The notes: generated by a model from the sequence alone, not told the origin. A stretch of 32,000 nt of DNA from Candidatus Methylomirabilis oxygeniifera (GCA_000091165.1 FP565575.1:630001-662000); one strand, 5' to 3'. Positions 6,027-23,778 are shown, counted from the first letter of the stretch. Made by a program: numbers and translations.

Positions 6027-6055
6027 CGCATACGCGCTCCATTCGGGATACCTAT

Positions 6056-6907
6056 ATGCACTCGTTGTTCGATTCCATAGTTCCAGGTTCGAGTTTTTTT
6101 GACCTGCTCCGGCAGTGTCGCTCGGACCTGCTGCCGCAGATGCCGATCAAGCCGGAAGGCCTGTCGCAGGTCGAGATCCGGGAGTTGATGGAGCAACCTC
6201 ATGGGACCACCATTCTCGCGATGAGGTTCCGAGATGGAGCCCTCATCGCGGGCGATCGGCAGGCGACTGAGGGTTATCAGATCTCGTCACGGCGAATCGA
6301 AAAGGTCTACAAGGCGGATCAGTACTCGGCCATCGCTATTGCCGGCGTCGCCGGTCCGTGCATCGAGATGGCCAAGCTGTTTGAAGTGGAGCTGACTCAC
6401 TACGAGAAGCTGGAAGGAATGTCGCTCTCGTTGGAGGGAAAGGCGAACAAGTTGTCTCAGATGGTCAAGGCCAATCTCCCGATGGCGATGCAGGGATTGG
6501 TGGTGATCCCGATCTTTGTCGGCTACGACGTCAGAAGCGGTGACGGTAAGATTTTCAAGTACGATGTCACCGGCGGCAGGTACGAGGAAACGGATTACTA
6601 CGCGACAGGCTCCGGCGGGAAGGACGCCCGCTCCACGATGAAAAAGCTGTATCGCGATCGTATGACTGAGGACGAGGCGATAGCAGTCGGGCTGGAGGCG
6701 CTGATTGACGCGGCGGAGGAGGACGTAGGGACCGGAGGCCCCGACTTTATTCGCGGAGTCTTTCCTACTGTCAAGCTGGCTGCTAAGGCGGGTCTGCAGG
6801 ATGTGCCGGAGATCCGCGTCAGAGAACTCTGCCAGGCTATTATCGATCGCCGCAAGCTGGTTGAGAGAGGGGCGAAGGGTGAGACCGGGGTGGGTGAGGT
6901 GAGCTGA
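6056..6907 (+). CDS. prcB: 20S proteasome beta subunit PrcB with propeptide
   Basis: Start taken at ATG 6056; the track start at 5879 overlaps dop. The sequence ...EQPHG/TTILAMRFRDGALIAGDRQATEG... carries the G/T autoprocessing site exposing Thr1. VELTHYEKLEG resembles mycobacterial PrcB from memory. The stop overlaps the prcA start (TGATG). Confidence 0.93.
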   Translation: MHSLFDSIVPGSSFFDLLRQCRSDLLPQMPIKPEGLSQVEIRELMEQPHGTTILAMRFRDGALIAGDRQATEGYQISSRRIEKVYKADQYSAIAIAGVAGPCIEMAKLFEVELTHYEKLEGMSLSLEGKANKLSQMVKANLPMAMQGLVVIPIFVGYDVRSGDGKIFKYDVTGGRYEETDYYATGSGGKDARSTMKKLYRDRMTEDEAIAVGLEALIDAAEEDVGTGGPDFIRGVFPTVKLAAKAGLQDVPEIRVRELCQAIIDRRKLVERGAKGETGVGEVS

Positions 6908-7602
6908 TGGCGCTTCCGTATTACGTGTCACCAGAGCAGATGATGCAGGATAAGGCGGAGTATGCCCGGAAGGGGATCGCCAGAGGAAAATCGATCATCG
7001 TTCTGGAATATGCTGACGGAATGATGCTGGTGGCTGAGAATCCCAGCGCGTCACTCAATAAGATCTCAGAGATTTACGACCGGATCGCCTTTGCCGGCGC
7101 CGGGCGGTACAGCGAGTTCGAAAATCTCCGGAAGGCGGGGATTCGGTATGCGGACCTGAAGGGGTTTGCGTATGACCGGGAAGACGTGACGGCCAAGTCG
7201 CTCGCCAATGCCTACTCTCAGACCATCGGCAATATTTTCAGCGAGGCGATGAAGCCGCTGGAGGTAGATATTTTAGTGGTAGAAGTGGCCGATGGCGGAG
7301 GACTGCCTAATGAGGTATATCGGATTGCCTTTGACGGCAGCATCTACGACGAGAAGGGGTTTGCTGCAATCGGCGGGCAGGCTGAAGAGATCAGGCAGCA
7401 CCTGAAGGACAAATACCAGACGGGACTTGATCGGAAGGCGGCTCTCAGGCTGGCTATACAGGCGCTGGAAGCCGTGAGCAGTACGAAGATCGAATCGAGA
7501 AGCCTGGAGGTGGCGATCCTGGAGCGCAGTCGCACGGGCCGGAAGTTCCGCCGCCTTTCCCAGGATGATCTCACGACAATTCTCACCGATACAGAGTCAT
7601 AG
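6907..7602 (+). CDS. prcA: 20S proteasome alpha subunit PrcA
   Basis: 231 aa. MALPYYVSPEQMMQDKAEYARKGIARGKSIIVLEYADGMMLVAENPSASLNKISEIYDRIAFAGAG closely parallels actinobacterial PrcA as I recall it. It is translationally coupled to prcB. Confidence 0.93.
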   Translation: MALPYYVSPEQMMQDKAEYARKGIARGKSIIVLEYADGMMLVAENPSASLNKISEIYDRIAFAGAGRYSEFENLRKAGIRYADLKGFAYDREDVTAKSLANAYSQTIGNIFSEAMKPLEVDILVVEVADGGGLPNEVYRIAFDGSIYDEKGFAAIGGQAEEIRQHLKDKYQTGLDRKAALRLAIQALEAVSSTKIESRSLEVAILERSRTGRKFRRLSQDDLTTILTDTES

Positions 7603-7666
7603 CTCCGCACGATTCTCCAGCCCCGCACCACGTACCTTAGACCTCGCACATATCTACGGAATTCCA

Positions 7667-7695
7667 TTGACCGTCACAGGGCCTTCCGGTACGAT
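7667..7695 (+). promoter_or_regulatory. Candidate internal promoter upstream of pafA
   Basis: TTGACC (7667-7672), a 17-nt spacer, then TACGAT (7690-7695). It lies in the 111-nt prcA-pafA gap, 18 nt upstream of ATG 7714. Confidence 0.35.
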
Positions 7696-7713
7696 GATAA
7701 TGGAGTCGTTGCC

Positions 7714-9072
7714 ATGCAGGAGCGTATCCTTGGACTGGAAAGCGAATACGGTCTGATCTCGTCCTCGGTCGGCGGGCGGGTGAACCTGTCGGTCGAAAGC
7801 GCACTGGGCTATCTCTTTGAAAAGGTGGTCTCGCGCCAGCGCGGGACCAACGACTTTCTGCGAAATGGCGCGCGCCTCTATCAGGATACCGGTTGTCATC
7901 CAGAGTATGCGACCCCCGAGTGCGATAACCCTCGGGACGTGGTCATCCACGACAAGGCGGGCGAGCGGATCGTGGAGGAGTTGCTCCTGAGCGCCGAGCA
8001 GAAGCTTCACGAGAATGGCATCTACTGCGACATCTACATCTTCAAGAACAATACGGACTCCGTCGGGAACACGTACGGCTGCCACGAGAACTATCTGGTG
8101 CAGCGCGGCGTGAATTTCCACAAGCTGGCAGAGCAGTTGATTCCCTTCTTCGTCACGCGTCAGGTTTTTGCGGGTGCAGGCAAGGTACTTCGGACGAGGA
8201 TGGGGAATCATTACTATATTTCACAGCGGGCGCAACATATCTACCAGGAGATCTCCGGCGCGACGACCAGCTCGCGCGGCATCATCAACACCCGCGATGA
8301 GCCCCACGCCGACGAGGAGAAGTACCGCCGCCTGCACGTCATTGTCGGCGACTCCAACATGTCGGAGGTCGCGACCTATCTGAAGGTCGGCACCACCGCC
8401 ATCGTCCTCGCCATGGTCGAGGACGGCGTCATCACACGCGACCTCGCCCTCGAGGACCCCGTCCGGGCCATCAAGGAGATCTCCCACGACATCACCTGCC
8501 GCCGCCGGGTGCGCCTGAAGCGCGGCAAGGAGTTCTCCGCCGTTGAGATTCAGCGGGAGTACCTCGACCTGGCCCTCGAGTACTACCAGGGCCGCGAACG
8601 CAGCCCCCAGGTGGCCGACCTTCTCGAGAAGTGGCAGTACGTCCTGGACAAGCTGGCGGAGGACCCGATGACGCTCAACCGCGAGCTCGACTGGGTCATC
8701 AAACACGGACTCATCACCTCCTACATCGCCCGCAAGGGTTGCTCCTTCGACGACCAGCGCGTCTTCATGCTGGACCTGCAGTATCATGACATCAAGCGAA
8801 CCCGCGGACTGTACTATCTCATGCTGCATGGTGACCTGATCGATCGGGTCATCACGGACGATGAGATCGAGACGGCCATGACGACGCCGCCGCAAACGAC
8901 GCGGGCCAAAGTACGAAGCGACTTTATCAGGTACGCGAATGAGAAGAATAAGTCGTACGATGTGGGCTGGAGCTACCTGAAGCTGAACGACCGGTATCAG
9001 CGAACCATCCTCTGTAAGGATCCGTTCAAACCCTGGGATCCGCGCGTGGATGAGTTGATCGGTCTGTCGTAG
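7714..9072 (+). CDS. pafA: Pup--protein ligase PafA (Dop/PafA family)
   Basis: 452 aa with motifs LGLESEYG, HPEYATPEC, NTYGCHENY, INTRDEPHADEEKYRRLHVIVGDSNMSE. It lacks the N-terminal insertion seen in the upstream paralog. Its position after prcA is canonical for pafA. Residues about 190-359 are encoded by the block identical to dop. Confidence 0.85.
   Translation: MQERILGLESEYGLISSSVGGRVNLSVESALGYLFEKVVSRQRGTNDFLRNGARLYQDTGCHPEYATPECDNPRDVVIHDKAGERIVEELLLSAEQKLHENGIYCDIYIFKNNTDSVGNTYGCHENYLVQRGVNFHKLAEQLIPFFVTRQVFAGAGKVLRTRMGNHYYISQRAQHIYQEISGATTSSRGIINTRDEPHADEEKYRRLHVIVGDSNMSEVATYLKVGTTAIVLAMVEDGVITRDLALEDPVRAIKEISHDITCRRRVRLKRGKEFSAVEIQREYLDLALEYYQGRERSPQVADLLEKWQYVLDKLAEDPMTLNRELDWVIKHGLITSYIARKGCSFDDQRVFMLDLQYHDIKRTRGLYYLMLHGDLIDRVITDDEIETAMTTPPQTTRAKVRSDFIRYANEKNKSYDVGWSYLKLNDRYQRTILCKDPFKPWDPRVDELIGLS
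8280..8789 (+). repeat. Copy B of the 510-bp perfect direct repeat (inside pafA)
   Basis: Identical to 5198-5707; see copy A. Confidence 0.97.
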
Positions 9073-9097
9073 AGATCGTGCCGTGGGTTAAGTGTTT

Positions 9098-9163
9098 AGC
9101 GGTCAGCCCCTTGAACCGTCAGCGTCCGACCGCTGAGAGCTGATCGCTGAACGCTGACAGCCG
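9098..9163. repeat. Palindromic intergenic element of the GCTGAC/GTCAGC type downstream of pafA
   Basis: CCGTCAGCGT (9116-9125) is nearly complementary to ACGCTGACAG (9151-9160). The inner segment GCTGAGAGCTGATCGCT (9132-9148) recurs at 15526-15542 with 16/17 identity. Confidence 0.5.
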
Positions 9164-9170
9164 TATTACA

Positions 9171-9204
9171 AGAGAGGGGTGGCGGTCGCCATCCCTCTCT
9201 TTTT
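9171..9204 (+). terminator. Rho-independent terminator closing the proteasome operon
   Basis: AGAGAGGGGTGG (9171-9182) pairs with CCATCCCTCTCT (9189-9200) as a 12-bp stem with one G-U pair and a 6-nt loop. TTTT follows immediately (9201-9204). Confidence 0.7.
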
Positions 9205-9245
9205 GCGCCCCGAATGTGGGCGGAGCCGTTGAAAGGAGTGATCGA

Positions 9246-10766
9246 GTGAAGATAGAGCTCAAGGTGCAGGATTTGCTGTCCTACGAGGGAGATGCGCTTA
9301 TTGTGAATCTGTTCGAAGGGGTGCAGCGCCCGGACGGGGCGACCGGGGCGGTGGACCAGGCGCTCGGCGAGTCGATTACCGCCGCCATCCGTCGGCGGGA
9401 GTTCAAGGGCAAACTCCACGAGCGACTCCTGCTGCATACTTCCGGGCAGCTTCCGGTGACTCGGCTACTGGTGATTGGACTCGGCAAGCAGGACGAGTTA
9501 TCTCTTGAGCGGGTGCGCTCAGCCTCGGCAGAGGCAATGCGTCATCTGCGCGGAGTGGGGGTACGGACGGTGGGCTCTATCGTTCATGGCGCCGGTATCG
9601 GGGGACTGGATGCCGGCCAGGCGGCATGCGCTGTGACCGAGGGGGCATCATTGGGCCTCTATCGATTTGACAAATATAAAAAGCCGGAGGAGAACGGGGA
9701 AAAGGTCGTTCAAAAGCTGACGTTGCTGGAGCGCGACCGAGCCAAGGCGTCTGCAATGCAAGGGGGGATATGTCGTGGCCGGATCCTGTCTGAGGCTGTG
9801 AGTTTCGCCCGTGATTTAGTGAATGAGCCGGCGAATACGCTGACCCCTTCGGAACTGGCGGCACGGGCTAGGAGGATGACGAGCGGGTTGGGTCTCACCG
9901 TCAAGATACTGGAGCGCGCCGACATGAAGAGGCTCGGCATGGGGGCGTTGTTGGGGGTGGCTCAGGGCAGCCAGGAGCCCCCGAAGCTCATTGAAGTAAG
10001 CTATAAGGGGAGGAAAGGGAAAGGGGCCGGTCCACGCCTTGGTCTGGTAGGCAAAGGGCTTACGTTCGACTCCGGAGGAATCTCCATCAAGCCGAGCGAG
10101 GGGATGGAGGCGATGAAGGGTGATATGGCCGGCGGAGCGGTGGTCCTCGCAGCGATCAAAGGGATTGCGGAGCTGAAGCTGCCGGTAGATGTGACGGCGA
10201 TCGTACCCGCGACCGAGAATCTACCGAGCGGGACGGCCCAGCGCCCGGGCGACATCGTCACAGCCATGAACGGAAAGACGATTGAGGTTATCAATACCGA
10301 CGCCGAAGGACGACTGATCCTGGCCGATGCCCTCTGTTACGCATGCGACAAGGGACTCACGCATCTTGTCGACGTCGCGACATTGACGGGCGCGTGCGTG
10401 ATCGCGCTCGGCTCGGTCCGGACGGGCGCCTTTACGAATAATCCGGAGCTGATGGGGCAGGTGAAGCAGGCCAGCGAGGCGGCCGGTGAGAAAATCTGGG
10501 AACTGCCTATGGATCACGAGTACGGCGAACAGATCAAGAGCGACTACGCCGATATGAAGAATATTGGAGGCAGGAAGGCCGGGCCGATCACAGGTGCGAA
10601 GCTCCTGGCCAACTTCGTCGAGAAAACTCCGTGGGTTCACCTGGATATCGCCGGGACCGCGCAAACTGAAAAGGAGTACGGATACCAGATAAAAGGGGCG
10701 ACGGGGGCTATGGTCCGTACTCTGATCTATCTGGCGATGAGCTTCGATAGCTCGAAGAAGAAATGA
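9246..10766 (+). CDS. pepA: Leucyl aminopeptidase (M17 family)
   Basis: M17 signature NTDAEGRLILADAL plus VGKGLTFDSGGISIKP. The preferred start is GTG 9246, with AAGGAG at 9233-9238 and a 7-nt spacer. The track start GTG 9216 is an alternative. Confidence 0.9.
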   Translation: MKIELKVQDLLSYEGDALIVNLFEGVQRPDGATGAVDQALGESITAAIRRREFKGKLHERLLLHTSGQLPVTRLLVIGLGKQDELSLERVRSASAEAMRHLRGVGVRTVGSIVHGAGIGGLDAGQAACAVTEGASLGLYRFDKYKKPEENGEKVVQKLTLLERDRAKASAMQGGICRGRILSEAVSFARDLVNEPANTLTPSELAARARRMTSGLGLTVKILERADMKRLGMGALLGVAQGSQEPPKLIEVSYKGRKGKGAGPRLGLVGKGLTFDSGGISIKPSEGMEAMKGDMAGGAVVLAAIKGIAELKLPVDVTAIVPATENLPSGTAQRPGDIVTAMNGKTIEVINTDAEGRLILADALCYACDKGLTHLVDVATLTGACVIALGSVRTGAFTNNPELMGQVKQASEAAGEKIWELPMDHEYGEQIKSDYADMKNIGGRKAGPITGAKLLANFVEKTPWVHLDIAGTAQTEKEYGYQIKGATGAMVRTLIYLAMSFDSSKKK

Positions 10767-12395: not shown

Positions 12396-12529
12396 CCCGC
12401 GGTGTCGGAAGCGATAGATGAACGTGTTCATACTCGATATTCTCGATGTCCACGAGAGGCGGGCGCCACGGCGGGACGCTTCGGCAAGAGGGTGGACGGA
12501 CAGATGTGAGGAAGTGAAAGGGAGGGCAT

Positions 12530-13441
12530 ATGGGTTGGTTCAGCGCATTATGTGAGGGCGGCGGGAAATCCGGTAAAAGGCTCATCGAGGCCTCTAAATC
12601 AGGAACTGCGGAAACGGTCACGCGCCTGTTGACTGAAGGCGTTGATGCAAATGCGGGTGATCAACATGGCTGGACGGCACTGATGTATGCGTCCTGGCAT
12701 GGACGTTCCGGAATAGTGGAGCTGCTGCTCAAGCACGGCGTCGACGTACACGCAAAGGATCATAATGGCTGGACAGCCCTGATGCGTGCAGCGTGGAAAG
12801 GGTACGCCGGGATTGTAGAGCTGCTGCTCAAGCACGGCGCCGACGTACACGCAAAGGATCATAATGGCTGGACAGCCCTGATGCATGCCTCTTGGAGAGG
12901 GCATTCCGGGGCGGTAGAGCTGCTGCTTAAGCACGGCGCCGACGTACAGGTCAGAGATAAAGACGGCTGGACGTCGCTGATGCATGCGTCCGGTCATGGG
13001 CGCTCCAGGGCGGTAGAGCTGCTGCTTAAGCACGGCGCCGACGTACAGGTCAGAGATAAAGACGGCTGGACGGCGCTGATGCGTGCATCCTGGAACGGAC
13101 ATGCCGGGGTGGTCGCGATGCTGCTGAAGCATGACGCAGATCCGAACGTGAAGGATCAGAGCGGCTGGACGGCGCTGATGCGTGCGTCCTGGCGAGGACA
13201 TTCCGGGGTGGTCGCGATGCTGCTGAAGCATGACGCAGATCCGAACGTGAAGGATCAGAAGGATGGGACGGCCCTGACACACGCGTCCGAGAGAGGGCGT
13301 TTTAGAATTGTCGCGCTCCTGCTTCAGTACGGCGCCGATATGCACGTGAAGGATTATAAACGTCAGACGGCCCTGATGTACGCGTCTTTGCATGGGCATT
13401 CGAGAGTTGCAGAGCTGCTGCAGAGACACGCCGCGTCCTGA
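12530..13441 (+). CDS. Ankyrin-repeat protein, paralog 1 (303 aa, about 9 ANK modules)
   Basis: 33-aa periodicity of DxxGWTALMxASWxGHxxxVELLLKHGADV. N-terminus is MGWFSALCEGGGKSGKRLIEASKSG. SD GGGAGGG lies 4 nt upstream of the ATG. Confidence 0.9.
   Translation: MGWFSALCEGGGKSGKRLIEASKSGTAETVTRLLTEGVDANAGDQHGWTALMYASWHGRSGIVELLLKHGVDVHAKDHNGWTALMRAAWKGYAGIVELLLKHGADVHAKDHNGWTALMHASWRGHSGAVELLLKHGADVQVRDKDGWTSLMHASGHGRSRAVELLLKHGADVQVRDKDGWTALMRASWNGHAGVVAMLLKHDADPNVKDQSGWTALMRASWRGHSGVVAMLLKHDADPNVKDQKDGTALTHASERGRFRIVALLLQYGADMHVKDYKRQTALMYASLHGHSRVAELLQRHAAS
12719..13259 (+). repeat. Three adjacent pairs of near-identical 99-bp ANK-module duplications inside paralog 1
   Basis: 12719-12785 vs 12818-12884 is 66/67 identical. 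12909-12983 vs 13008-13082 is 74/75 identical. 13104-13160 vs 13203-13259 is 57/57 identical. All three pairs are offset by exactly 99 nt. Confidence 0.9.
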
Positions 13442-13625
13442 GAGCACGGCGCCGGATTTCACACATTGGAAATGTCTTGCTAAGCTGTATACTTGATTTG
13501 TATGGACCCTTTTGTAGGGTCTCGGAGTATGGGGGCGGCCGTCTCGAATCCGGCGTCCTGATCGGGGATCGACCGCAGCCGTGTGCGGGATGGGATAGAT
13601 GGGCTAGATGTGATAGGAGGGGGGT

Positions 13626-14339
13626 ATGGGTTTCTTTAGCGCATTATTTGAAAGTGATGAGAAGCCTGTTGATAAGCTTATTGAGGCGTCCAAATCCGGA
13701 GATATTGAAAAGGTGAAAAGGCTGCTGGCTGAAGGCGCTGACGTGCATGTGATTGATAAAGATGGCGTGACCGCTCTGATGCACGCGTCTGAGAATGGGC
13801 ATACTGAGGTTATGGAGCTACTGCTCAACAAAGGCGCTGATGTGAACGCCAGAGATAAACTTGGCTGGACGGCCTTGATGCAAGCGGCCTGGCATGGACA
13901 AGCCAAGGTGGCAGAGCTGCTGCTCAATCAGGGCGCCGATGTCAATGCGCAGGCCGTGAGTGGCGCGACCGCCTTGATACGCGCGTCCGAGAAAGGACAT
14001 GCCGGGGTTGTCGGACTGCTGCTCATTCGAGGTGTTGATGTGGACGCAAAGGCGGGAGACGGCGCGACCGCCCTGATACGCGCGGCCTGGCATGGACATG
14101 CCGGGGTTGTCGGACTCCTGCTCAATCACGGCGCTGATGTGGATGCGAGAGACAACAACCGTGCGACCGCCCTGATACGCGCGGCCTGGCATGGACATGC
14201 CAAGGTGGCGGAGCTGCTGCTCAATAAAGGCGCTGATGTGAGCGCGAAGGATAATATGAATGCGACGGCCTGGATGTATGCCTCCCAGAATAAACTTTCT
14301 AAGATTGCTGAACTGCTGGACAGACACGGCGCGCGCTAA
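13626..14339 (+). CDS. Ankyrin-repeat protein, paralog 2 (237 aa, about 7 modules)
   Basis: N-terminus MGFFSALFESDEKPVDKLIEASKSGDIEKVKRLLAEGADV, followed by ANK modules. SD AGGAGGGG lies just upstream. Confidence 0.9.
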   Translation: MGFFSALFESDEKPVDKLIEASKSGDIEKVKRLLAEGADVHVIDKDGVTALMHASENGHTEVMELLLNKGADVNARDKLGWTALMQAAWHGQAKVAELLLNQGADVNAQAVSGATALIRASEKGHAGVVGLLLIRGVDVDAKAGDGATALIRAAWHGHAGVVGLLLNHGADVDARDNNRATALIRAAWHGHAKVAELLLNKGADVSAKDNMNATAWMYASQNKLSKIAELLDRHGAR

Positions 14340-14383
14340 GATGCAAAGAAGCGATCGGCGTTCGGCGATTAAGGGATAGGAGT

Positions 14384-14457
14384 ATAGGCTGAAGACCGAA
14401 GGCTGAAGGATCCTCACAATCTTCCACCTTCAGCCTATTTACCTTCAGCCTTCAGTC
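14384..14457. repeat. REP-like palindromic spacer (AGGCTGAAGG / CCTTCAGCCT arms) between paralogs 2 and 3
   Basis: G-arms ATAGGCTGAAG (14384-14394) and AAGGCTGAAGGA (14399-14410) face C-arms CCTTCAGCCTAT (14427-14438) and ACCTTCAGCCTTCAG (14441-14455). Confidence 0.6.
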
Positions 14458-14505
14458 TGGTACTGACCCCTGACAGCTTTGTTTTCGAAGGAAGAGGGAG
14501 GTTGT

Positions 14506-15417
14506 ATGGGTTTCCTGAGCTCATTATTTGGGAGTGGTGGGAAGCGTGGTAAAAGGCTGATCGAGGCGTCCAAATCCGGAGAAACCGGAAAAGTTAAGAG
14601 CCTGTTGGCCGAAGGCGCCGATGTGAATGCGATAGATGGGGACGGCTGGACAGCCCTGATGCATGCATCGTGGGTCGGACATCTTACGGTTGTCGAAGCG
14701 CTGCTCGATCGTGGCGCTGATGTGAACGTGCAGGATAAGAATGGGGGGACGGCACTGATCCGGGCGGCCTGGAAAGAACACGCCCGTGTGGTGGAGAGGC
14801 TTCTCGCGAAAGGCGCTGAGGTTGACGTAAAGGATAAAGATAGCTTTAGCGCGCTGATGCGTGCGGCATGGAATGGCCGTTTCGGAGTGATAGAGATACT
14901 CCTCAATAACGGAGCAGTTGTGGATGCGAGGGACAAATTTGGTTGTACGGCCCTCATACGCGCGTCGTTGAATGGCCATACCAGGATTGCGGAACTCCTG
15001 CTCGATCGAGGCGCGGACCTGAACGCGCTGGATCAACATGGCGGGACGGCGCTGATACATGCCGCCGCGCAGGGCCATACCGGGGTTGCGGAGCTCCTGC
15101 TCGATCGAGGCGCGGACCTGAACGTACGGGATCAATACAGCAGGACGGCGCTGATACGGGCCGCCGCGCATGGCCATACCGGGGTTGCAGAACTCCTGAT
15201 CAATCGAGGCGCGGACCTGAACGTACGGGATCAACATGGCGGGACGGCGCTGATACGGGCCGCCGCGCATGGCCATACCGGGGTTGCGGAACTCCTGCTC
15301 GATCGAGGCGCGGACCTGAACATGTGGGATGCCGATGGCGGGACGGCTTTGGAGCGCGCATCTTTGAATGGACACCTTAAGATGTTGGAACTGTTGAAGA
15401 AGTATGGGGCACAGTAA
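14506..15417 (+). CDS. Ankyrin-repeat protein, paralog 3 (303 aa)
   Basis: Start moved to ATG 14506 (GAGGGAGG SD 5 nt upstream), so the N-terminus is MGFLSSLFGSGGKRGKRLIEASKSG as in the other paralogs. ANK periodicity runs throughout. Confidence 0.9.
   Translation: MGFLSSLFGSGGKRGKRLIEASKSGETGKVKSLLAEGADVNAIDGDGWTALMHASWVGHLTVVEALLDRGADVNVQDKNGGTALIRAAWKEHARVVERLLAKGAEVDVKDKDSFSALMRAAWNGRFGVIEILLNNGAVVDARDKFGCTALIRASLNGHTRIAELLLDRGADLNALDQHGGTALIHAAAQGHTGVAELLLDRGADLNVRDQYSRTALIRAAAHGHTGVAELLINRGADLNVRDQHGGTALIRAAAHGHTGVAELLLDRGADLNMWDADGGTALERASLNGHLKMLELLKKYGAQ
14974..15370 (+). repeat. Four consecutive highly similar 99-bp ANK modules inside paralog 3
   Basis: GGCCATACC recurs at 14974, 15073, 15172 and 15271. 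GHTGVAELLLDRGADLNVRDQ-type units share long identical runs. Confidence 0.85.
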
Positions 15418-15437
15418 GATTAAAAAAAGTGATCAGC

Positions 15438-15500
15438 TATAGGCGGAAGAGGCTGAAGGCAGATAGACTGAAGGCGTTGAGTATTCTTCAGTCTTCAGCG
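15438..15500. repeat. REP-like palindromic spacer between paralogs 3 and 4
   Basis: G-arms AGGCGGAAG, AGGCTGAAGG and AGACTGAAGG face C-arms CTTCAGTCTTCAGCG. A GCTGAGCGCTGATCGCT motif follows at 15526-15542. Confidence 0.6.
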
Positions 15501-15564
15501 TAACCCTTTGCTTTTGTGGCTGACGGCTGAGCGCTGATCGCTATGCTCTCAGAAAGGAGGGTAT

Positions 15565-16476
15565 ATGGGTTTATTTGGGTCACTATTTGAGGGTGGTGGA
15601 AAGCATGGCGCAAAGCTCATCGCGGCGTCTCAATCCGGAGAGACCGATAAAGTCAAGAGCCTGTTGGCTGACGGCGCCGATGTCAATGCGAAGGATCGCG
15701 AGGGCTGGACGGCTCTGATGCATGCGTCCTGGCATGGACATGCCGAGGCGGCAGCGGCACTGCTCGATCGTGGCGCTGACGTGGGGACGACGGATAACAA
15801 TGGTGGGACCGCTCTGATACGCGCGTCCTGGCATGGGCATGTCGAGATTGCGGAGCGACTGATCGCGAAAGGCGCCGATGTCAACGTGAGCGACAAAGAC
15901 AGCTTTACGTCCCTCATGTATGCGTCCGAGAATGGGCACGTGAAGGTCGTAGAGCTGCTGCTCACGCACGGCGCCGCTATCGACGCCAGGGCCGGTAATG
16001 GCCGGACGGTTCTGATGATGGCGTCTGCGGAAGGATATACTGAGGTGGTAGACCTGCTGATCAGTAAGGGCGCCGACGTCAATGTCTGGGACAAGACCGG
16101 CTGGACGGTCCTGATGTATGCATCCGGGAAGGGGCATACCGGGATTGCAGAGCGGCTGCTCGCGAAAGGCGCCGATCCGAATGCGAAGGATAGTAATAGT
16201 GTCACAGCCCTGATGCGTGCGGCTGTGAATGGGCGTTTCGGGGTCGCAGAACTGCTGCTCAAACACGGCGCCGATCTGAATGCGAAGGATAGTAATAGCG
16301 TCACAGCCCTGATGTATGCGGCCGGGAAAGGACATGCGAAGGTTGTAGAGTTACTGCTCACGCAAGGCGCGGACGTGAACGTCAAGGCGAATGATGGCGG
16401 GACGGCCCTGGAGTATGCGCATTGGCATGGGTATGATGACGTTACGGAGCTGCTTGAGAAACACGGGGCGCACTGA
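15565..16476 (+). CDS. Ankyrin-repeat protein, paralog 4 (303 aa)
   Basis: N-terminus MGLFGSLFEGGGKHGAKLIAASQSGETDKVKSLLADGADV, followed by ANK modules. SD AAAGGAGGG lies upstream. Confidence 0.9.
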   Translation: MGLFGSLFEGGGKHGAKLIAASQSGETDKVKSLLADGADVNAKDREGWTALMHASWHGHAEAAAALLDRGADVGTTDNNGGTALIRASWHGHVEIAERLIAKGADVNVSDKDSFTSLMYASENGHVKVVELLLTHGAAIDARAGNGRTVLMMASAEGYTEVVDLLISKGADVNVWDKTGWTVLMYASGKGHTGIAERLLAKGADPNAKDSNSVTALMRAAVNGRFGVAELLLKHGADLNAKDSNSVTALMYAAGKGHAKVVELLLTQGADVNVKANDGGTALEYAHWHGYDDVTELLEKHGAH

Positions 16477-16483
16477 GTGGGAG

Positions 16484-16575
16484 TAAGGCTGAAGGGATTT
16501 AGGCTGAAGGAGGATAGGCTTCAAGGCGCTATTCCTAAAAGCCTAACAGCCTACAGCCTTAACACCTGAGTAGTT
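16484..16575. repeat. REP-like palindromic spacer between paralogs 4 and 5
   Basis: Tandem G-arms TAAGGCTGAAGGGATT, TAGGCTGAAGGAGGAT and AGGCTTCAAGG occupy 16484-16526. A degenerate C-arm GCCTAACAGCCTACAGCCTTAACACCTGAGTAG follows. Confidence 0.6.
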
Positions 16576-16590
16576 GCGAAAGGAGGCACT

Positions 16591-17502
16591 ATGGGTTTCC
16601 TTAGCTCATTATTTGGGGATAGTGGGAAGCCTGTCGATAGGCTCATCGAGGCGTCGAAGTCCGGAGACATCGAAAAAGTCAAGCGCCTGCTGGCCGAAGG
16701 CGCCGATGTGAACGAGAGAGATGCGGATGGCTGGACGGCCCTGACACATGCGTCCTGGCATGGCCATGCCCCGGTTGTCGAGCTGCTGCTGAATAAAGGC
16801 GCCGATGTGCATGTGAGAGACAATAAAGGCTTTTTGGTTTTGATTCATGCGTCTTGGAGGGGGCATGTGGAGGTTGTCGAGCTGCTGCTGAATAAAGGCG
16901 CCGATGTGCATGTGAGGAATGAAGACGGCGGGATAGCCCTGATGCGTGCGTCCGAGAAAGGGCATACCCCGGTGGTCGAGTTACTGTTGAATAAAGGCGC
17001 CGATGTCAACATGAGGGATCAGAATGGTTGGACTTCCCTGATGCGAGCGTCCTGGTATGGGCATGCCCCGGTGGTCGAGCTACTGTTGAATAAAGGCGCC
17101 GATGTCAACGTGAGAGATCAGAATAGCGGAACGCCCCTGATGCATGCGTCCAAACATGGATATGCCCCAGTAGTCGAGCTGCTCCTGACTCAAAGCGCTG
17201 ATGTGAATGCCAAGGCGGGTAGTGGCGTGACCGCCCTGATGTATGCATCTGAGTATGGATATGCCGGGATTGTCGAGCTGCTCCTGGCTCAAAGCGCTGA
17301 TGTGAATGCCAAGGCGGATAATGGCGCGACCGCCCTGATGCTGGCGTCTGGGAACGGGCATACCGGGTGTGTGGAGCGGCTCCTGACTCAAGGCGCTGAT
17401 GTGAAGGCGAAGGATTATAATCGTCGGACGGCCCTGATGTATGCCACGTCTAACGGGCATACTCAGGTAGCTGAGCTGTTGCAGAAGCACGATACACACT
17501 GA
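16591..17502 (+). CDS. Ankyrin-repeat protein, paralog 5 (303 aa)
   Basis: N-terminus MGFLSSLFGDSGKPVDRLIEASKSGDIEKVKRLLAEGADV, followed by ANK modules. SD AAAGGAGG lies upstream. Confidence 0.9.
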   Translation: MGFLSSLFGDSGKPVDRLIEASKSGDIEKVKRLLAEGADVNERDADGWTALTHASWHGHAPVVELLLNKGADVHVRDNKGFLVLIHASWRGHVEVVELLLNKGADVHVRNEDGGIALMRASEKGHTPVVELLLNKGADVNMRDQNGWTSLMRASWYGHAPVVELLLNKGADVNVRDQNSGTPLMHASKHGYAPVVELLLTQSADVNAKAGSGVTALMYASEYGYAGIVELLLAQSADVNAKADNGATALMLASGNGHTGCVERLLTQGADVKAKDYNRRTALMYATSNGHTQVAELLQKHDTH

Positions 17503-17508
17503 GTCGGA

Positions 17509-17592
17509 GTATAGGCTGAGGACTGTTAGCCTTCTAGGGGTCGCACCTTGAAGTCTATCCTCCTTCAGCCTAAATCCCTTCAGCCTATTTAC
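17509..17592. repeat. REP-like palindromic spacer between paralogs 5 and 6
   Basis: 17546-17588 is the reverse complement of 16484-16526 (40/43 identical by my alignment). CCTTCAGCCTATTTACCTT is also present at 14427-14445. Confidence 0.65.
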
Positions 17593-17608
17593 CTTGAAAG
17601 GAGGCACT

Positions 17609-18427
17609 ATGGGTCTTTTCGGACAATTATTTGGCGGGGGAGGTGACAAGCCTGCCGGCAACCTTATCGATGCAGCTAAATATGGAGAGGTAGAAAAAGT
17701 TAAGAGCCTGTTAGCTGAAGGCGCCGACGTGAACGCGAAGGATCTGGATGGGTGGACGGCCCTGATGCGCGCGGCCTGGCGTGGAGATATCGGGATTGCA
17801 GAGCTGCTGCTCAACAAGAGCGCCGACGTGAACGCGGGTGATAAACAGAACTGGACAGCCCTGATGCATGCGTCCGAGAATGGGCATCCGGAGATTGCAA
17901 AGCTGTTGCTCAGTAAGAACGCCGATGTGAATGTCAGGGCGACCAATGGCGCAACGACCCTGATCATCGCGTCTGCCAACGGGCATACCGAGATCGTCAA
18001 ACTTCTGCTCGAGAAGGGGCCCGAAGTGAACGTGCAGGCGAATGATGGCGGGACGGCTCTGATGCGTTCGGCTGCGAACGGGCATACCGAGATCGTCACC
18101 CTGCTGCTCGATAAAGGTGCGGATGTCAACATCAGGGATCGAAAAGGCGAAACGCCGCTGATGCGTACGTCTGCGGAAGGGCAGTTGGGGCTCGTCACGA
18201 TGCTGCTGGAGAAGGGGGCTGATGTGAACGCGCAGGCGATTAAAGGCGAGACCGCCCTGATGTATGCGGCGTGGTATGGGCGTATGGGGGTTGTCAAGCT
18301 GCTACTCAGTCACGGCGCTGATGTGTATCTTAAGGATAGCAACAAAGGTGAGAACGCCAGAGGATATGCGTACGGGAACGGACATGAGGACATCGCCCTG
18401 CTGCTGGAGAAGCACGCGGCGCAGTGA
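17609..18427 (+). CDS. Ankyrin-repeat protein, paralog 6 (272 aa, about 8 modules)
   Basis: Start moved to ATG 17609 (AAAGGAGG SD), giving MGLFGQLFGGGGDKPAGNLIDAAKYGEVEKVKSLLAEGADV. ANK modules run throughout. Confidence 0.9.
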   Translation: MGLFGQLFGGGGDKPAGNLIDAAKYGEVEKVKSLLAEGADVNAKDLDGWTALMRAAWRGDIGIAELLLNKSADVNAGDKQNWTALMHASENGHPEIAKLLLSKNADVNVRATNGATTLIIASANGHTEIVKLLLEKGPEVNVQANDGGTALMRSAANGHTEIVTLLLDKGADVNIRDRKGETPLMRTSAEGQLGLVTMLLEKGADVNAQAIKGETALMYAAWYGRMGVVKLLLSHGADVYLKDSNKGENARGYAYGNGHEDIALLLEKHAAQ

Positions 18428-18857
18428 GACGACGCTGCAGAATGTCACATATAGCCCCCTCTATCGAGAGCCTGTTCCGGACTCAACCTGGGGGGTGAGC
18501 GTGGGTTTTCCCTTGAACTCAGCGTAATCTCTCTGATAAGTGTGTCAGCCATTTCTGCCACCATCTCCCGCTTGATGCCCTCTTCGGTTCTGGCGTCGTG
18601 AAATACCAGAGAGGGCCGAGCCGGGTGCGACGCACGCGGTCATGTCGCGCATCGCGCTCAAGGGGTTCCCGGAAAGACCGGGCAGGAGGAAACCGTGGTT
18701 GCACCTGGGCTGGATACGTTCCGGGTGGCCCGCTTCAAAGTCGCGCCTGAAGCGAGGGGCCGGCTCCGCCTTCTCGATCACACGGGTTCCGTCCTCTGCC
18801 TCTCGCACATCGGCCCGCGCGGTGACGGCGCGCGCCGGACGCGCCGGAGTGCGGGAC

Positions 18858-20855
18858 ATGTCTGAGGATCTTAGCCCGAAGTATCAGATCACCACCCCGG
18901 ACGATGCCTACTGGCGCCAACAGATCAAGTGCCAGGACGCCTGCCCCGTACACACGGATGCCCGCGGCTACGTGAACGCGATCGCCGACGGCGATCCCGA
19001 GCGCGCGTACATCATTGCCCGCGAGCCGAATCCTTTCGCCTCGATTTGCGGCCGGGTGTGCGCCGCGCCCTGCGAAGCCGCCTGCCGCCGGGGCGATCTT
19101 GACGCGCCTATCGCCATCCGCGCCCTTAAGCGCTTCGTGACCGAGCGCTACGGCGTGGAGGCCCCGCTGCGGGCCGACCGGGCCCGCCCGTCGATCGAGG
19201 CGACGGGTCTCCACCTGGTGGAGGCAAGCCCGATCGTCCGGGAGATCCGAAACGTCGAGGACGCCACCGCCCTGCGGCGGGTCGGCCTGGCCGAGCACGC
19301 GGGGACGGGCAAGCGCGTGGCCGTGGTCGGCTCCGGCGTGGCGGGCCTGACCTGCGCGCACGACCTGGCCCTGCTCGGGTATCGGGTGACGGTCTTCGAG
19401 AAGCAGACGGTCCCTGGCGGGATGCTCATGCTCGGCGTCCCCGAGTACCGCCTCCCCCGGGACCTGGTGCGGGCAGAGATCCAGGCCATCCTCGACCTGG
19501 GCGTGGAGCTGAAGACGAACGCAGCCATCGGGCGGGACTTCGCGCTGGCCGACCTGCGGGCCCAGGGCTTTGAGGCAACGTTCCTGGCCATCGGGTGTCA
19601 CAAGGCGCGTGGGCTCCCGATCGAGGGAACCGAACTGGACGGCGTCTTCCGGGCGGTGGAGTTCCTCCTCAATATCAACCTCGGCTTCAAGGTCGACCTG
19701 GGCCGGCGCGTGATCGTGGTGGGCGGCGGGGACGTGGCGATGGACGCGGCCCGCACTGCCGCCCGCGAGATGGCCGGGGTGGATCCCGTCGCGGCCATGC
19801 GCGAGGCCATGGACGTCGCCCGCGAGGCAGTCCGCGCGGGCGCCCGCGAGGTGCGGGTCGTCTGTCTCGAGTCCTGGGACGAGATGCCGGCCCAGCGCTT
19901 CGAGATCGAGGAGGCCCTGGCGGAGGGGCTCGCTATCTTCCCGCGCCTCGGACCGAAGCGCATTGTGGGTCAGGAGGGCAGGGCGGTCGGCCTGGAGACG
20001 ATCCGCGTGAGCCGCGTCTTCGACGAGCAGCGACGCTTCAGCCCCCGGTTCGTGGAAGGGACGGAGCAGGTGATGGCCGCCGACTCGATCATCCTGGCTA
20101 TCGGGCAGGCGCCGGACCTGGCGTTCCTCGGTCCAGAGGATGGCGTTGCGATCACCCCCCGCCAGACGATCCAGGTAGACTCGGCCACGCTGGCTACCAC
20201 CGCGCCCGGGGTGTACGCCGGCGGCGATGTGGCGTTCGGCCCGCGCATTTTCATCGAGGGTGTCGCCAACGGGCACCGCGCAGCCCGCTCCATCCACGAA
20301 TATCTGAGCGACCGGCGCTTTGCCCTCTCGACCAGGGCGGAGTGGGTCCGCCTCGATCACGACCGCCAGGTCCTGCAGGGAGAGGCCGGAACCGAGCCGG
20401 CCTTGCCGCGCGTGTATCCCGGCTATCGGGCGACGCCGCGCCGCGAGCCGCCTGGACTGCCCATCGACCGGCGCATCGGAATCGCCGAAGTGGAACTGAA
20501 GTACCCGGACACCCAGGCCCAGGCCCAGGCCCAGCGCTGCGTCCGGTGCGGGATCCACACGATCTTCGACGGCACAACGTGTATCCTGTGCGGCGGGTGC
20601 GTGGATGTCTGCCCCGAGTACTGCCTGCGTATGGTTCCCATCGACCAACTCGCCGGCGACGATGCCGTGACGTCCCTCGTTGAATCGCTCACCGGTTCCC
20701 CGCAATCCGCAACCCCCGTCGCGGCCTCAGCCGCCACCGCGATGCTCATGGATGCGACCCGCTGTATCCGCTGCGCCCTGTGCGCGATGCGGTGTCCCAC
20801 GGGCGCCATCAGCATGGAGGCGTTTCGCTATGTCGAAACCTGGGTCCTCGCCTGA
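18858..20855 (+). CDS. GltD-like (glutamate synthase small-subunit family) NAD(P)H:acceptor oxidoreductase with C-terminal 2x[4Fe-4S] ferredoxin domain
   Basis: Start taken at ATG 18858 (MSEDLSPKYQ...); the track's upstream extension looks like noncoding read-through. An N-terminal Cys cluster (CQDACPVHTD...ICGRVCAAPCEAACRRG) is followed by a dinucleotide fold VAVVGSGVAGLTCAHDLALLGYRVTVFEKQTVPGGMLMLGVPEYRLPR and a second fold VIVVGGGDVAMDAART. The C-terminus carries CVRCG...CILCGGCVDVCP and CIRCALCAMRCP. Confidence 0.85.
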   Translation: MSEDLSPKYQITTPDDAYWRQQIKCQDACPVHTDARGYVNAIADGDPERAYIIAREPNPFASICGRVCAAPCEAACRRGDLDAPIAIRALKRFVTERYGVEAPLRADRARPSIEATGLHLVEASPIVREIRNVEDATALRRVGLAEHAGTGKRVAVVGSGVAGLTCAHDLALLGYRVTVFEKQTVPGGMLMLGVPEYRLPRDLVRAEIQAILDLGVELKTNAAIGRDFALADLRAQGFEATFLAIGCHKARGLPIEGTELDGVFRAVEFLLNINLGFKVDLGRRVIVVGGGDVAMDAARTAAREMAGVDPVAAMREAMDVAREAVRAGAREVRVVCLESWDEMPAQRFEIEEALAEGLAIFPRLGPKRIVGQEGRAVGLETIRVSRVFDEQRRFSPRFVEGTEQVMAADSIILAIGQAPDLAFLGPEDGVAITPRQTIQVDSATLATTAPGVYAGGDVAFGPRIFIEGVANGHRAARSIHEYLSDRRFALSTRAEWVRLDHDRQVLQGEAGTEPALPRVYPGYRATPRREPPGLPIDRRIGIAEVELKYPDTQAQAQAQRCVRCGIHTIFDGTTCILCGGCVDVCPEYCLRMVPIDQLAGDDAVTSLVESLTGSPQSATPVAASAATAMLMDATRCIRCALCAMRCPTGAISMEAFRYVETWVLA

Positions 20856-21348
20856 GTCGATCGACAACAGTCCGGACAAGGGACGGATCTCGCGCCGCGT
20901 CCTGCTGGGGACAGGCTGGTGCGGGTTCCTGCTCTCCATCGTGGGCCCCGCCCTGGCCAACATCCGCTTCCTCTTCCCCAACGTCGTGTACGAGGGCCCC
21001 ACACTGCTCAAGGTAGGACGCCCGGAGGACTACGCGTCGGGAACGATCACGTTCCTGGATGAGCAACGGCTCTTCATCATGCGGGACCCCGAGGGGCTCC
21101 GGGCGCTGTCGGCCATCTGCACGCACCTGCGGTGCACCACCGGACCCTTTGTGCCGCCGACCGCCGAGTGGAAGGAGGCCCACTCGCGCTGCCCGTGCCA
21201 TGGCAGCATCTTTGCTAAGGACGGCCGGGTCCTCCAGGGACCGGCCCCACGGCCCCTCGATTTCTATCGGGTCAGCCTCGCCCCGGATGGCCGCCTCGTG
21301 GTCGACACGGCTGCCGTCGTAGACAAGGGGGATGTCCTGAAGGTGTAG
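20830..21348 (+). CDS. Rieske [2Fe-2S] protein with twin-arginine-like signal anchor
   Basis: Start at ATG 20830 (MSKPGSS...) overlaps the upstream stop by 26 nt. SRRVLLGTG is followed by a hydrophobic segment. Rieske boxes CTHLRC and CPCHGS are present. Confidence 0.9.
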
Positions 21349-21437
21349 GCAAGAGGCCGAAGGCAAGTGCGAGGCCATCATCGCTTCGGCTGATCGCCGT
21401 CGGGAGACGGCTCCTGCCCGGACCACTGGAAGCCCAG

Positions 21438-22934
21438 GTGTGCTTGGGAGCCATGATGACAGACGGACGGACGAGCGGGATCATCAATCGCGTGACTGCG
21501 AGCCGGCTGTGGAAGTCGGTCTTTCGGCACGGCTATCCGGCCACGGATCTGGACCGGATGTCCGCCATGTTTACCAACTTCTTCCTCCACCTCCTCCCGG
21601 CCAAGGTCCATCCGAACAGCCTGCGCCTTACCTACACCTGGGCCCTGGGGATGGTCACCTTCTACCTCATGGTCATCCAGTTCGTGACCGGCTTCCTCCT
21701 GATGTTCTTTTACATCCCGGTCACGGACCTGGCCTACCACAACATGAAGGATCTCCAGTTCGCCGTCTCCTTCGGCCTCCTCCTCCGCAACATGCACCGC
21801 TGGGCGGCCCACGGAATGGTGGCGCTGGTGTTCCTCCACATGGGCCGCGTCTTCTACACAGCCTCGTATCGCCCGCCCCGCGAGTTCAACTGGACCATGG
21901 GCGTTCTCCTCTGGCTGGTGACGCTGTTCCTCAGTTTCACGGGGTACCTCCTCCCGTGGGATCAGCTTGCCTTCTGGGCCATCACGGTGGGTACGAGCAT
22001 TGCCGGCTACCCGCCCTGGATCGGGGAGACCATCCGGACGCTGATGCTCGGCGGCCATCAGGTCGGGCAGGGCGCCCTGCTGCGCTTCTACGTGCTCCAC
22101 GTTGCGATCCTTCCCGCGATGCTCTGCCTCCTGGTGGCGATCCACTTCTGGCGGGTGCGGAAAGACGGCGGCCTCTCTCGGCCGGAGGGCCCGTCGCCCA
22201 AGCGCACCGCCATCCCGGTCGCCGGGGGGCGGTTCGTTCCCGGGCCGCAGAAGACCTATACCCTGATGGAGGTTGTGCGCGGAACCTCGCCGATGGTGGG
22301 GGCGCAGAGGCCGGAGGACGAGGTTCCCGCCTGGCCCCACCTCCTCTTCCGGTTGGTCGTCCTCTTCCAGGTCGTGCTGGGTGTTGTCGTCCTCCTGGCC
22401 ATCGTGTTTGACGCCCCCCTGGAAGAGCTGGCCAACCCCACGCACCCGCCGAACCCGGCCAAGGCGCCCTGGTACTTCCTGGGCCTGCAGGAGTTGGTGA
22501 GCTACTCGGCCCTGGTGGGGGGCGTGGTGATCCCCGGCCTCCTGGTCCTGGGTCTGATGGGTATCCCGTACATCGATCGCACGCGGGAGGGGGAGGGGAT
22601 ATGGTTCACGTCGGCCCTGGGGAAGCGGATCGCGGCATGGTCATTCGTGGGGACGATCCCGTACACCATGGGCCTCCTATTCCTGAACGCTCGCTTCGGC
22701 GTGCGGCAATTCGCCCCCGAGGCCCCGCAGGGGGTCGTGGACCTGCTCAACCCGGCCACGCTGCTCCTGGCTGCCATCGTTGCCTTCTCGGTCATCGTCG
22801 GCTGGCGCACCGGCTCGCGCCGGATGGCGGCCATCGCCCTCTTCTCGGCCTTTGTCTCGGCCTACGTGCTCCTGATGATCATCGGGACGTACTTTCGCGG
22901 TCCCAACTGGGACTGGGCGCTGCCATGGCGTTGA
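21438..22934 (+). CDS. Cytochrome b (long, fused b6 plus subunit-IV-like form)
   Basis: Up to 498 aa. Heme-ligand His pairs occur in [20 protein letters not shown] and [37 protein letters not shown] and the PEWY-equivalent region [16 protein letters not shown] are present. The start is ambiguous between GTG 21438 and ATG 21453/21456. Confidence 0.9.
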
Positions 22935-22986
22935 AAGCCGGGATTGGGGGTTGGGCGTTGGGGGTTAGCGGGAAGAGAGGCAGGGG

Positions 22987-23778
22987 ATGAGTCGGCGATG
23001 GGTGTGGGCATTCGCTGTGTTGGGCGTCTTCAACGGGCTCCTCTTCCTGGTTGCCCTCTGGCGCGACTATGACCGGGAGTGGAAGCGCTACCAGACGGCC
23101 TTTTTCGCCCTCGAGGGCCGCAAGGCGCGGACGGCCCGGGAGGAAGAGGCCGTGAAGGCCCGCCGGCACGAGTTCATCCAGGTCGCCGTAGCGGGGACGG
23201 CCAGGGTGGACCGGTGCATGATGTGCCACCTCGGCATCGAGGATCAGCGGTTTGCCGACGCGCCGCAGCCGTTCCGGAGCCACCCGGAGATCCCGAGACA
23301 TCCCTTCGAACGCTTCGGGTGTACCGTCTGCCACGGGGGGCAGGACATGGCCACGACGAAGGCCGATGCCCACGGGCGTGTCCCGTTCTGGGAGGAGCCG
23401 CTGCTGGAGGGGGAGTACCGCCAGGCTGCCTGCGGCGGCTGCCACCTCGGCGGCGACGTACCGGGCGCGCCGCTGCTGGCCCAGGGGCGGCAACTCTACC
23501 TCCAGCGGGGCTGCGTCGCGTGTCACCGGATCCGCGGCATGGGCGGGATGGTTGGGCCGGACCTGACGTTCGTGGGGAGCCGCAAGCACGATCCTGAATG
23601 GTACATACGACACTTCAAGGACCCGCAGGCCACGGTGCCCGGCTCGACCATGCCCCCCTTCAAACACCTGCCGGAGGCGGAGCTGAAGGCGTTGACGGTC
23701 TATATGCTGAGTCTGCGCGAGATGCCGTCGGCCCTCCTCCCGGCACCCCGAACGGCGGCAGCCTCAGGAACGCAATAA
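22987..23778 (+). CDS. Membrane-anchored tetraheme c-type cytochrome
   Basis: 263 aa with an N-terminal hydrophobic anchor WVWAFAVLGVFNGLLFLVALW. It has four CxxCH motifs: CMMCH, CTVCH, CGGCH, CVACH. Confidence 0.85.
   Translation: MSRRWVWAFAVLGVFNGLLFLVALWRDYDREWKRYQTAFFALEGRKARTAREEEAVKARRHEFIQVAVAGTARVDRCMMCHLGIEDQRFADAPQPFRSHPEIPRHPFERFGCTVCHGGQDMATTKADAHGRVPFWEEPLLEGEYRQAACGGCHLGGDVPGAPLLAQGRQLYLQRGCVACHRIRGMGGMVGPDLTFVGSRKHDPEWYIRHFKDPQATVPGSTMPPFKHLPEAELKALTVYMLSLREMPSALLPAPRTAAASGTQ

Follow-up and report, generated by a model that had tools for sequence, protein, structure and literature searches.

We analyzed a 32,000-nucleotide stretch of the genome of Candidatus Methylomirabilis oxygeniifera (M. 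oxyfera; GCA_000091165.1, FP565575.1:630001-662000), referred to below as the window, in which six tandem plus-strand genes for ankyrin-repeat (ANK) proteins occupy positions 12530-18427. All six proteins begin with a short tag of the form MG-Φ-Φ-(S/G)-x-L-(F/C)-(E/G), where Φ is a hydrophobic residue, followed by a Gly-rich turn of 3-4 residues. Because the tag closely resembles the membrane-binding helices of MinD, FtsY, MreB, SecA and EIIA-Glc, the ANK proteins probably serve as scaffolds at the inner surface of the cell membrane. We favor the reading, with a probability of roughly 60%, that the tag is a weak, reversible amphipathic anchor by which ANK adaptors are positioned at the cytoplasmic membrane. 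A terminal amphipathic anchor is a known device; the example from M. oxyfera and its NC10 relatives is new, in an uncharged variant, and the finding leaves established concepts unchanged.

The ankyrin genes and their conserved N-termini

The genes, their tags and the ribosome-binding sites in front of them are listed here; aa stands for amino acids, ORF for open reading frame and pLDDT for the predicted local distance difference test score of AlphaFold.

12530-13441, + strand: ANK gene A1, 303 aa, about 9 repeats (ORF, Pfam, public gene calls)
13626-14339, + strand: ANK gene A2, 237 aa, about 7 repeats (ORF, Pfam, public gene calls)
14506-15417, + strand: ANK gene A3, 303 aa, 9 repeats in the AlphaFold model of the solenoid, mean pLDDT 95 (Pfam, public gene calls)
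15565-16476, + strand: ANK gene A4, 303 aa (ORF, Pfam, public gene calls)
16591-17502, + strand: ANK gene A5, 303 aa (ORF, Pfam, public gene calls)
17609-18427, + strand: ANK gene A6, 272 aa, about 8 repeats (Pfam, public gene calls)
12530-12568, + strand: A1 tag and Gly turn, MGWFSALCEGGGK, the most deviant copy in the window (W3, C8)
13626-13664, + strand: A2 tag, MGFFSALFESDEK
14506-14544, + strand: A3 tag, MGFLSSLFGSGGK, with GFLSSLFGSGG (compare MinD GFLKRLFGG) and pLDDT below 50 for residues 1-10
15565-15603, + strand: A4 tag, MGLFGSLFEGGGK, the sole window copy matching PROSITE PS00008
16591-16629, + strand: A5 tag, MGFLSSLFGDSGK
17609-17650, + strand: A6 tag, MGLFGQLFGGGGDK, one residue longer
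12521-12525, + strand: Shine-Dalgarno sequence GGAGG of A1, 4-5 nucleotides before the ATG
13616-13620, 14497-14501, 15556-15560, 16582-16586 and 17600-17604, + strand: Shine-Dalgarno sequences GGAGG of A2-A6, 4-5 nucleotides before each ATG

Mechanically called ORFs extend two of the genes upstream to TTG codons (14479 and 17594). Nevertheless, the ATG starts appear to be the correct ones. Translation at 12530-17650 gives the six N-termini as they had been quoted in an earlier interpretation of this DNA made without databases (the sequence-only reading), and the GGAGG elements together with the public annotation argue that the true starts do not lie elsewhere: two independent sets of gene calls (NCBI and ENA, on a contig of GCA_009026205.1) use the identical six ATGs. 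An equivalent ATG start was found in all 45 tagged genes of the set compiled below, with GGT as the next codon in 44 of them. Pfam assigns only ANK families to the six proteins (Ank_2 E-values 1e-49 to 8e-98, with tandem 33-residue repeats above the Pfam thresholds), and the first match begins at residue 15-19. A2-A6 are 48-54% identical to A1, and M1, G2, L7 and K13 are invariant in the six. The capping sequence LIEASKSG does not directly follow the tag as previously described, since four or five residues (e.g. SGKR) separate it from K13. When the motif was relaxed, its only matches at ORF starts of the window were still the six ANK genes.

The motif is also present in orthologs of these proteins. 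Our compiled set comprises 45 tagged ANK genes from 10 loci, and in all of them residues 1 and 2 are M and G. The next positions vary within narrow limits: residue 3 is F in 34 genes, L in 9 and W and V in 1 each; residue 4 is F (21), L (21) or I (3); residue 5 is S (22), G (20), R (2) or D (1); residue 6 is S (34), A (8) or Q (3); residue 7 is L (43), I (1) or F (1); residue 8 is F (44) or C (1); and residue 9 is E (26), G (16), K (2) or A (1). Residues 10-12 are mostly G, residue 13 is K in 36 genes, and the Leu that opens the N-terminal capping repeat (N-cap) stands at residue 18 in 39 genes and at residue 19 in the other 6. Positions 3, 4, 7 and 8 are thus hydrophobic in 45/45 genes and positions 5, 6 and 9 in 0/45. 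Hydrophobicity at positions 3 and 4 is maintained despite the use of 8 and 6 different codons, respectively.

Three lines of evidence indicate that the tag is under purifying selection. One is a scan of metagenome contigs that was blind to the tag and keyed on the N-cap alone (LIEASKSG..LL..G.D), in which all 14 prokaryotic genes with this N-cap and a readable N-terminus begin with the tag. A 15th such gene, at locus L130, is cut off upstream, leaving only the tail of the tag region visible, and the remaining matches are internal repeats, eukaryote-like sequences or proteins with a different cap, LIEASKTG. The second is provided by diverged arrays in syntenic positions. At L123 and L124, where the neighboring gene for a major facilitator superfamily (MFS) transporter is 90-92% identical to that of the window, one-to-one ANK orthologs are 68-93% identical and all tagged; the A1 orthologs, for example, begin with MGFFSALFEGGGK in L124 and MGLFDALFEGGGK in L123. 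L128, L131, L135 and L139 each hold five or six consecutive ANK genes with partly different paralog content, every one of them tagged. The MFS protein is about 81% identical to that of the window in L128, L131 and L139, and PafA is 92-95% identical where it is present (L128 and L139); L135 holds neither of the two. At L139 the closest matches to the window paralogs are just 54-64% identical, and across the syntenic arrays the tag is retained on every gene with ANK bodies down to 52-64% identity. The third line comes from distant pairs among 43 relatives, in which the tag is 71% identical, compared with 60% in the ANK body and 46% in the linker; the tag is thus close to the framework motifs of the ANK fold (75-83%).

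A profile of the first 46 residues, run against an index of 5.8 billion proteins, identified eight tagged fragments from related metagenomes; all matches were 83 aa or shorter, which may reflect a length filter. When the same 46-position profile was used with HMMER, which ranks by summed repeat matches, the top 150 entries were giant ANK proteins that are uninformative on the tag. Searches with the full-length paralogs returned mostly longer multi-repeat ANK proteins, the true orthologs not being among those listed, and none of the 120 best-scoring generic ANK proteins was tagged. No tagged non-ANK proteins were found in the NC10 loci collected here. The A3 ortholog of L123 (3626-4490) is split into ORFs of 61 aa and 231 aa, which would reflect a frameshift, a pseudogene or an assembly error.

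The tag compared with known membrane anchors

The hydrophobic residues of the tag follow a strict i, i+1, i+4, i+5 pattern, as in an amphipathic helix. Its mean hydrophobicity is 0.79-0.86, and its hydrophobic moment of 0.53-0.61 ranks within the highest 5-9% of the values obtained when its residues are shuffled. Residues 1-8 are free of K/R in 43/45 genes. Behind the Gly turn there is commonly a basic patch, residues 10-18 having a net charge of +1 or more in 33/45 genes. In the AlphaFold2 model of A3, residues 1-10 lack secondary structure and the first ANK helix begins at residue 13. The tag is therefore free rather than packed on the ANK fold, and the flexible linker covers only about residues 9-12 because the first helix starts right after them. 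The proposal that the N-terminus is not part of the ANK fold thus agrees with both Pfam and AlphaFold, but the linker is shorter than had been implied.

Several experimentally validated anchors have a very similar design. The membrane-targeting sequence of E. coli MinD is KGFLKRLFGG (PMC5471200), and its core, G-F-L-x-x-L-F-G-G, is almost the same as GFLSSLFGSGG of A3 and A5. Both segments are terminal, about 8-10 residues long and amphipathic, with Gly at the end. On the other hand, the MinD sequence is C-terminal, has K/R on its polar face where the NC10 tag has S/A/Q, and has its binding switched by ATP-dependent dimerization, no such switch being evident for the ANK proteins. A single MinD sequence binds too weakly, and the affinity required comes from dimerization (PMC8155659). 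Residues 1-18 of E. coli FtsY, MAKEKKRGFFSWLGFGQK, are listed as lipid-binding (PMC3189734) and include RGFFSWLGFG, which is nearly identical to the tag (compare GFFSALFES of A2). Membrane binding by E. coli MreB depends on an N-terminal helix of nine residues that is also sufficient for it, although GFP requires two copies of this helix (PMC3163269); the helix of EIIA-Glc is a membrane anchor that is required only for integral-membrane partners (PMC6123446); and the N-terminal helix of SecA binds lipid (PMC9418451). The experimental validation of these four anchors comes from E. coli and V. cholerae (PMC3189734, PMC3163269, PMC6123446, PMC9418451). They share with the NC10 tag their position, a similar length and an architecture of linker followed by domain, and in other bacteria the same families bear the form MG[FL][FL][SG]xLFG. 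They differ in being enzymes or cytoskeletal proteins with known membrane partners, whereas the NC10 cargo is a pure ANK solenoid, from a free-living bacterium, behind an uncharged helix.

Other resemblances are looser. ARF1 (MGNIFANLFKGLFGKKE) shares the MG start, the aromatic/Leu amphipathic pattern and an LFG element, but Arf proteins need N-myristoylation and a GTP switch, and the NC10 tags mostly break the rules of N-myristoyltransferase, an enzyme that to our knowledge bacteria lack. The tag also resembles uncharged Gly-rich segments such as that of Arl1. After removal of Met, the A4 N-terminus (GLFGSLFEGGG) is reminiscent of the influenza HA2 fusion peptide (GLFGAIAGFIE...), both being Gly-first, Gly-rich, uncharged or acidic amphipathic N-terminal segments; this is an analogy only, with no homology implied, as the HA2 peptide is longer, at about 23 residues, extracellular and pH-triggered. 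In all, the likeness to short membrane-binding amphipathic N-termini put forward by the sequence-only reading is borne out by the hydrophobic pattern, the disorder, the near-identity to MinD and FtsY sequences and the octapeptides of the SecA, FtsY, MreB and EIIA-Glc families, and it is the best-supported part of that interpretation.

Contrary to what had been implied, a broader survey indicated that the octapeptide is not special to these paralogs but is a widespread N-terminal motif of bacteria and phages. Scanning 185,579 species genomes for GGAG-spacer-ATG followed by MG[FL][FL][SG]x[LF]F[GED] gave at least 120 matches, and nearly all of those listed (L003-L122) are starts of real ORFs. 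Pfam families found among 115 of the matches listed include DUF4428 (21), PTS EIIA-Glc (9), SecA (8), SPFH/Band 7 (4), HlyU (4), MreB (3) and FtsY (2), in addition to TPR, Sel1, R3H and others. In IMG/VR (L143-L252), the true motif order was matched 110 times and two order-scrambled controls of identical degeneracy 3 and 5 times, making the true order 20-35 times commoner. As judged from these sequences, the tag is a transplantable module found on unrelated cargo, specific to neither ANK proteins nor NC10. The NC10 version has features of its own: K/R is found at position 6 in 0/45 genes as compared with 67% of the generic tags, the net charge of residues 1-9 is -0.5 versus +0.4, and, relative to the known bacterial anchors, GGG is inserted ahead of the basic residues.

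The bearers of the generic motif are diverse. Among the matches listed, those with DUF4428 (21/115) are zinc-ribbon proteins of Clostridia, those of the HlyU family are proteins of 95-99 aa from Kiloniellaceae and Pelagibius, and a conserved cyanobacterial family of 111 aa carries the octapeptide and has no Pfam match. On phage contigs from IMG/VR the motif heads portal proteins (several PHROGs), DNA-ejection/pilot proteins, a holin and structural proteins of the virion; portal proteins would not be expected to bind membranes through their N-terminus. A literature search for Methylomirabilis ankyrin proteins and for printed strings like MGLFSKLF returned nothing relevant.

Proposed membrane anchoring and alternative roles of the tag

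We infer from these comparisons that the tag would bind the membrane, and bind it weakly, and that the ANK proteins may serve as adaptors there. The tag would be unstructured in solution, and residues 2-9 would fold into about two helical turns upon contact with the inner leaflet. In such a helix F/L3, F/L4, L7 and F8 would insert into the bilayer, with S/G5, S/A6 and E/G9 facing the solvent. The turn formed by Gly9-12 would cap the helix and, across a constant spacing of 4-5 residues, link it to the N-terminal capping repeat, whose start is usually a basic patch (K13, K/R16-17). The short tether and this basic start might thereby keep the N-terminal end of the solenoid near the membrane surface. 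Like the MinD and MreB sequences when present in a single copy, one helix of 8 residues would be expected to bind weakly and reversibly. Stable localization would then need avidity, which could come from oligomers or from an ANK groove bound to an integral membrane partner. The proteins could thus act as membrane-proximal adaptors, much as the EIIA-Glc helix reaches membrane partners.

Several observations weigh against membrane anchoring. The cationic polar face typical of bacterial anchors is missing from the NC10 tag, as seen at position 6, and residues 10-18 are net acidic in 9/45 genes. With just some 8 residues the segment is short, it includes Gly, which breaks helices, and its hydrophobic moment falls below the 0.69-0.87 calculated for the classical anchors compared here. 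The rare A/T-ending codons of the tag indicate that part of its conservation lies at the nucleotide level. In addition, the motif alone is insufficient proof of membrane binding because it also heads phage portal proteins, which are not known to bind membranes.

Alternatively, the tag might be a short linear motif that binds a protein rather than lipid. Candidate partners are a neighboring paralog, whose ANK groove would then link the proteins head to tail into oligomers, a common docking site, and a chaperone or other assembly factor. ANK grooves bind extended peptides, and the tag is exposed and disordered in the AlphaFold model, lacks the charge of most lipid-binding bacterial helices and in its generic form begins portal and virion proteins of phages, which assemble with partners. 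However, the conserved feature is a binary hydrophobic/polar pattern with free exchange of F/L/I/W/V, which is typical of lipid insertion; the occurrence in dozens of unrelated families of many phyla argues against a single dedicated receptor; and the model shows no docking of the tag in cis. We therefore regard a partner motif as unlikely, though worth keeping in mind. Conservation could instead act mainly on the mRNA, with an A/U-rich, weakly structured 5' coding start aiding translation initiation and the peptide having no function of its own. In codons 2-8 (e.g. 14509-14529) of the window ANK genes and 39 related genes, the tag uses GGT (44/45), TCA (32/34), TTA (34/43) and TTT (44/44), the corresponding frequencies in the ANK bodies being 8%, 1%, 2% and 54%. 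Native 5' regions are also less stably folded than synonymous recodings in 5/6 genes (some of the codon frequencies used being rough guesses), and both features fit selection for an open translation-initiation region. Nevertheless, positions 3 and 4 vary in codon as well as in residue yet stay hydrophobic in 45/45 genes, and members of other phyla encode the peptide motif with different codons, its excess over scrambled orders being that given above. Synonymous-site conservation was rejected as proof of an RNA element because it is just as high across the first ANK repeat. An exclusively mRNA-level role is accordingly quite improbable.

The remaining alternatives were raised by the sequence-only reading itself. 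A eukaryotic N-myristoylation site, of the Arf or AvrPto type, on effectors delivered to a host would account for the invariant Gly2 (45/45), for Ser6 in three window paralogs and for the resemblance to Arf/Arl N-termini. The Ser6 residues are indeed there, but the PROSITE PS00008 pattern, G-{EDRKHPFYW}-x(2)-[STAGCN]-{P}, bars F/W/Y at position 3, and it is matched by only 1/6 window tags and 7/45 related tags. The effector idea fares no better. The proteins have no secretion signal, genes for a secretion system are absent from the 32 kb window, M. oxyfera is a free-living methanotroph of enrichment cultures, and the same motif heads the housekeeping cytoplasmic proteins SecA, FtsY and MreB. 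ANK repeats are common to the window proteins, the Legionella Dot/Icm Ank effectors and the defence protein MzaA, but scores fell short of the curated cut-offs by factors of 5 to more than 30, with the repeats as their sole source. The top NCBIfam scores were 240 bits for MzaA (cut-off 800) and 157 for AnkY (cut-off 600), NCBIfam and PADLOC gave sub-threshold ANK-repeat matches only, and no effector-specific domain or translocation signal was identified in the window ANK proteins. We thus give myristoylation next to no credence. The hydrophobic N-terminus recalls part of a signal peptide, so that a signal for export or secretion, be it of the Sec, Tat, lipoprotein or another type, might be suspected. 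An N-terminal degradation signal might be suspected from the genomic position, as a Pup-proteasome operon lies about 3.5 kb upstream of the array and an M17 leucyl aminopeptidase gene adjoins the array, a neighborhood that is kept in relatives. Throughout the 45 sequences, however, the hydrophobic run spans only about 7 residues, is preceded by no basic n-region and is followed by acidic or Gly residues, and there is no AxA cleavage site, twin arginine or lipobox. Cys8 occurs in 1/45 genes, A1 of the window, and a lipobox reading of it was rejected because the orthologs have Phe at this position. Gly, the residue exposed by Met removal, is not known to act as a bacterial N-degron, pupylation targets lysines rather than N-terminal motifs, and synteny within one genus is weak evidence. 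No support was found for either the secretion or the degradation proposal, and both are very improbable.

If the membrane-anchor reading is correct, M. oxyfera and its relatives keep a conserved set of six ANK scaffold genes whose products would work at the inner membrane. The repeat surfaces of these products change more quickly than the neighboring genes while the anchor stays constant, which would fit adaptors that recruit different partners to one place. The tag would also offer a handle on proteins otherwise annotated just as 'ankyrin repeat', and the nine-residue N-terminal pattern would point to proteins of many bacteria and phages that are likely to be peripheral membrane proteins, several families of unknown function among them. 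A more specific version, which we consider decidedly unlikely, is that the NC10 tag is a distinct uncharged, Gly-rich, fusion-peptide-like variant that tethers six or more rapidly diversifying ANK adaptors to a specific membrane environment or receptor, MG-Φ-Φ-(S/G)-x-L-F-G being an under-recognized N-terminal sorting code. Candidate membrane partners may then be the adjacent bc-type respiratory complex or the machinery of the polygonal cell shape. Such a code may be common to DUF4428, the 111-aa cyanobacterial, HlyU-like and phage portal/DNA-ejection proteins and could predict peripheral membrane proteins.

Surroundings of the ankyrin array

Upstream of the array, positions 2433-10766 hold a complete Pup-proteasome set (an Mpa-like AAA ATPase, Dop, PrcB, PrcA and PafA) followed by the M17 aminopeptidase; genes for an AsnC regulator and the MFS transporter also lie upstream. 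The genes downstream (18642-23778), for an Fe-S/flavin oxidoreductase, cytochrome b, a Rieske protein and a FixO-like cytochrome c, include those of a Rieske/cytochrome b complex that has an Fe-S flavoprotein subunit. The place of the array between the MFS and Fe-S oxidoreductase genes is kept when L123, L124, L128, L131, L135 and L139 are compared with the window. The ANK genes diverge faster than their neighbors (57-77% identity for A1 orthologs versus 81-92% for MFS and 92-95% for PafA), and their paralog content changes between lineages.

Long antisense ORFs of up to 405 aa lie opposite every ANK gene (12599-18297, minus strand). They are called in neither public annotation and are most likely artefacts of repeat composition. 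The reverse complement of the tag DNA (..AAATAATGA..) contains sigma-70-like -10 boxes (AATAAT) on the minus strand at 13643-13672, 14523-14552 and 16608-16637, the same relative place in three paralogs. A promoter and terminator scan of the ANK array gave results at chance level (overall count of 5 versus 3.2 +/- 1.6 expected). The spacers at 14340-14505, 15418-15564, 16477-16590 and 17503-17608 carry copies of (T)AGGCTGAAGG in inverted orientation that form imperfect hairpins; the first ANK spacer (13442-13625) is without them, and a further site is found at 4505-4520 on the minus strand. With at most one mismatch, GGCTGAAGG occurs 36 times in the window as compared with 9.9 +/- 3.2 in shuffles, and the spacer repeat looks like a repetitive extragenic palindromic (REP)-like element or an mRNA-stabilizing hairpin.

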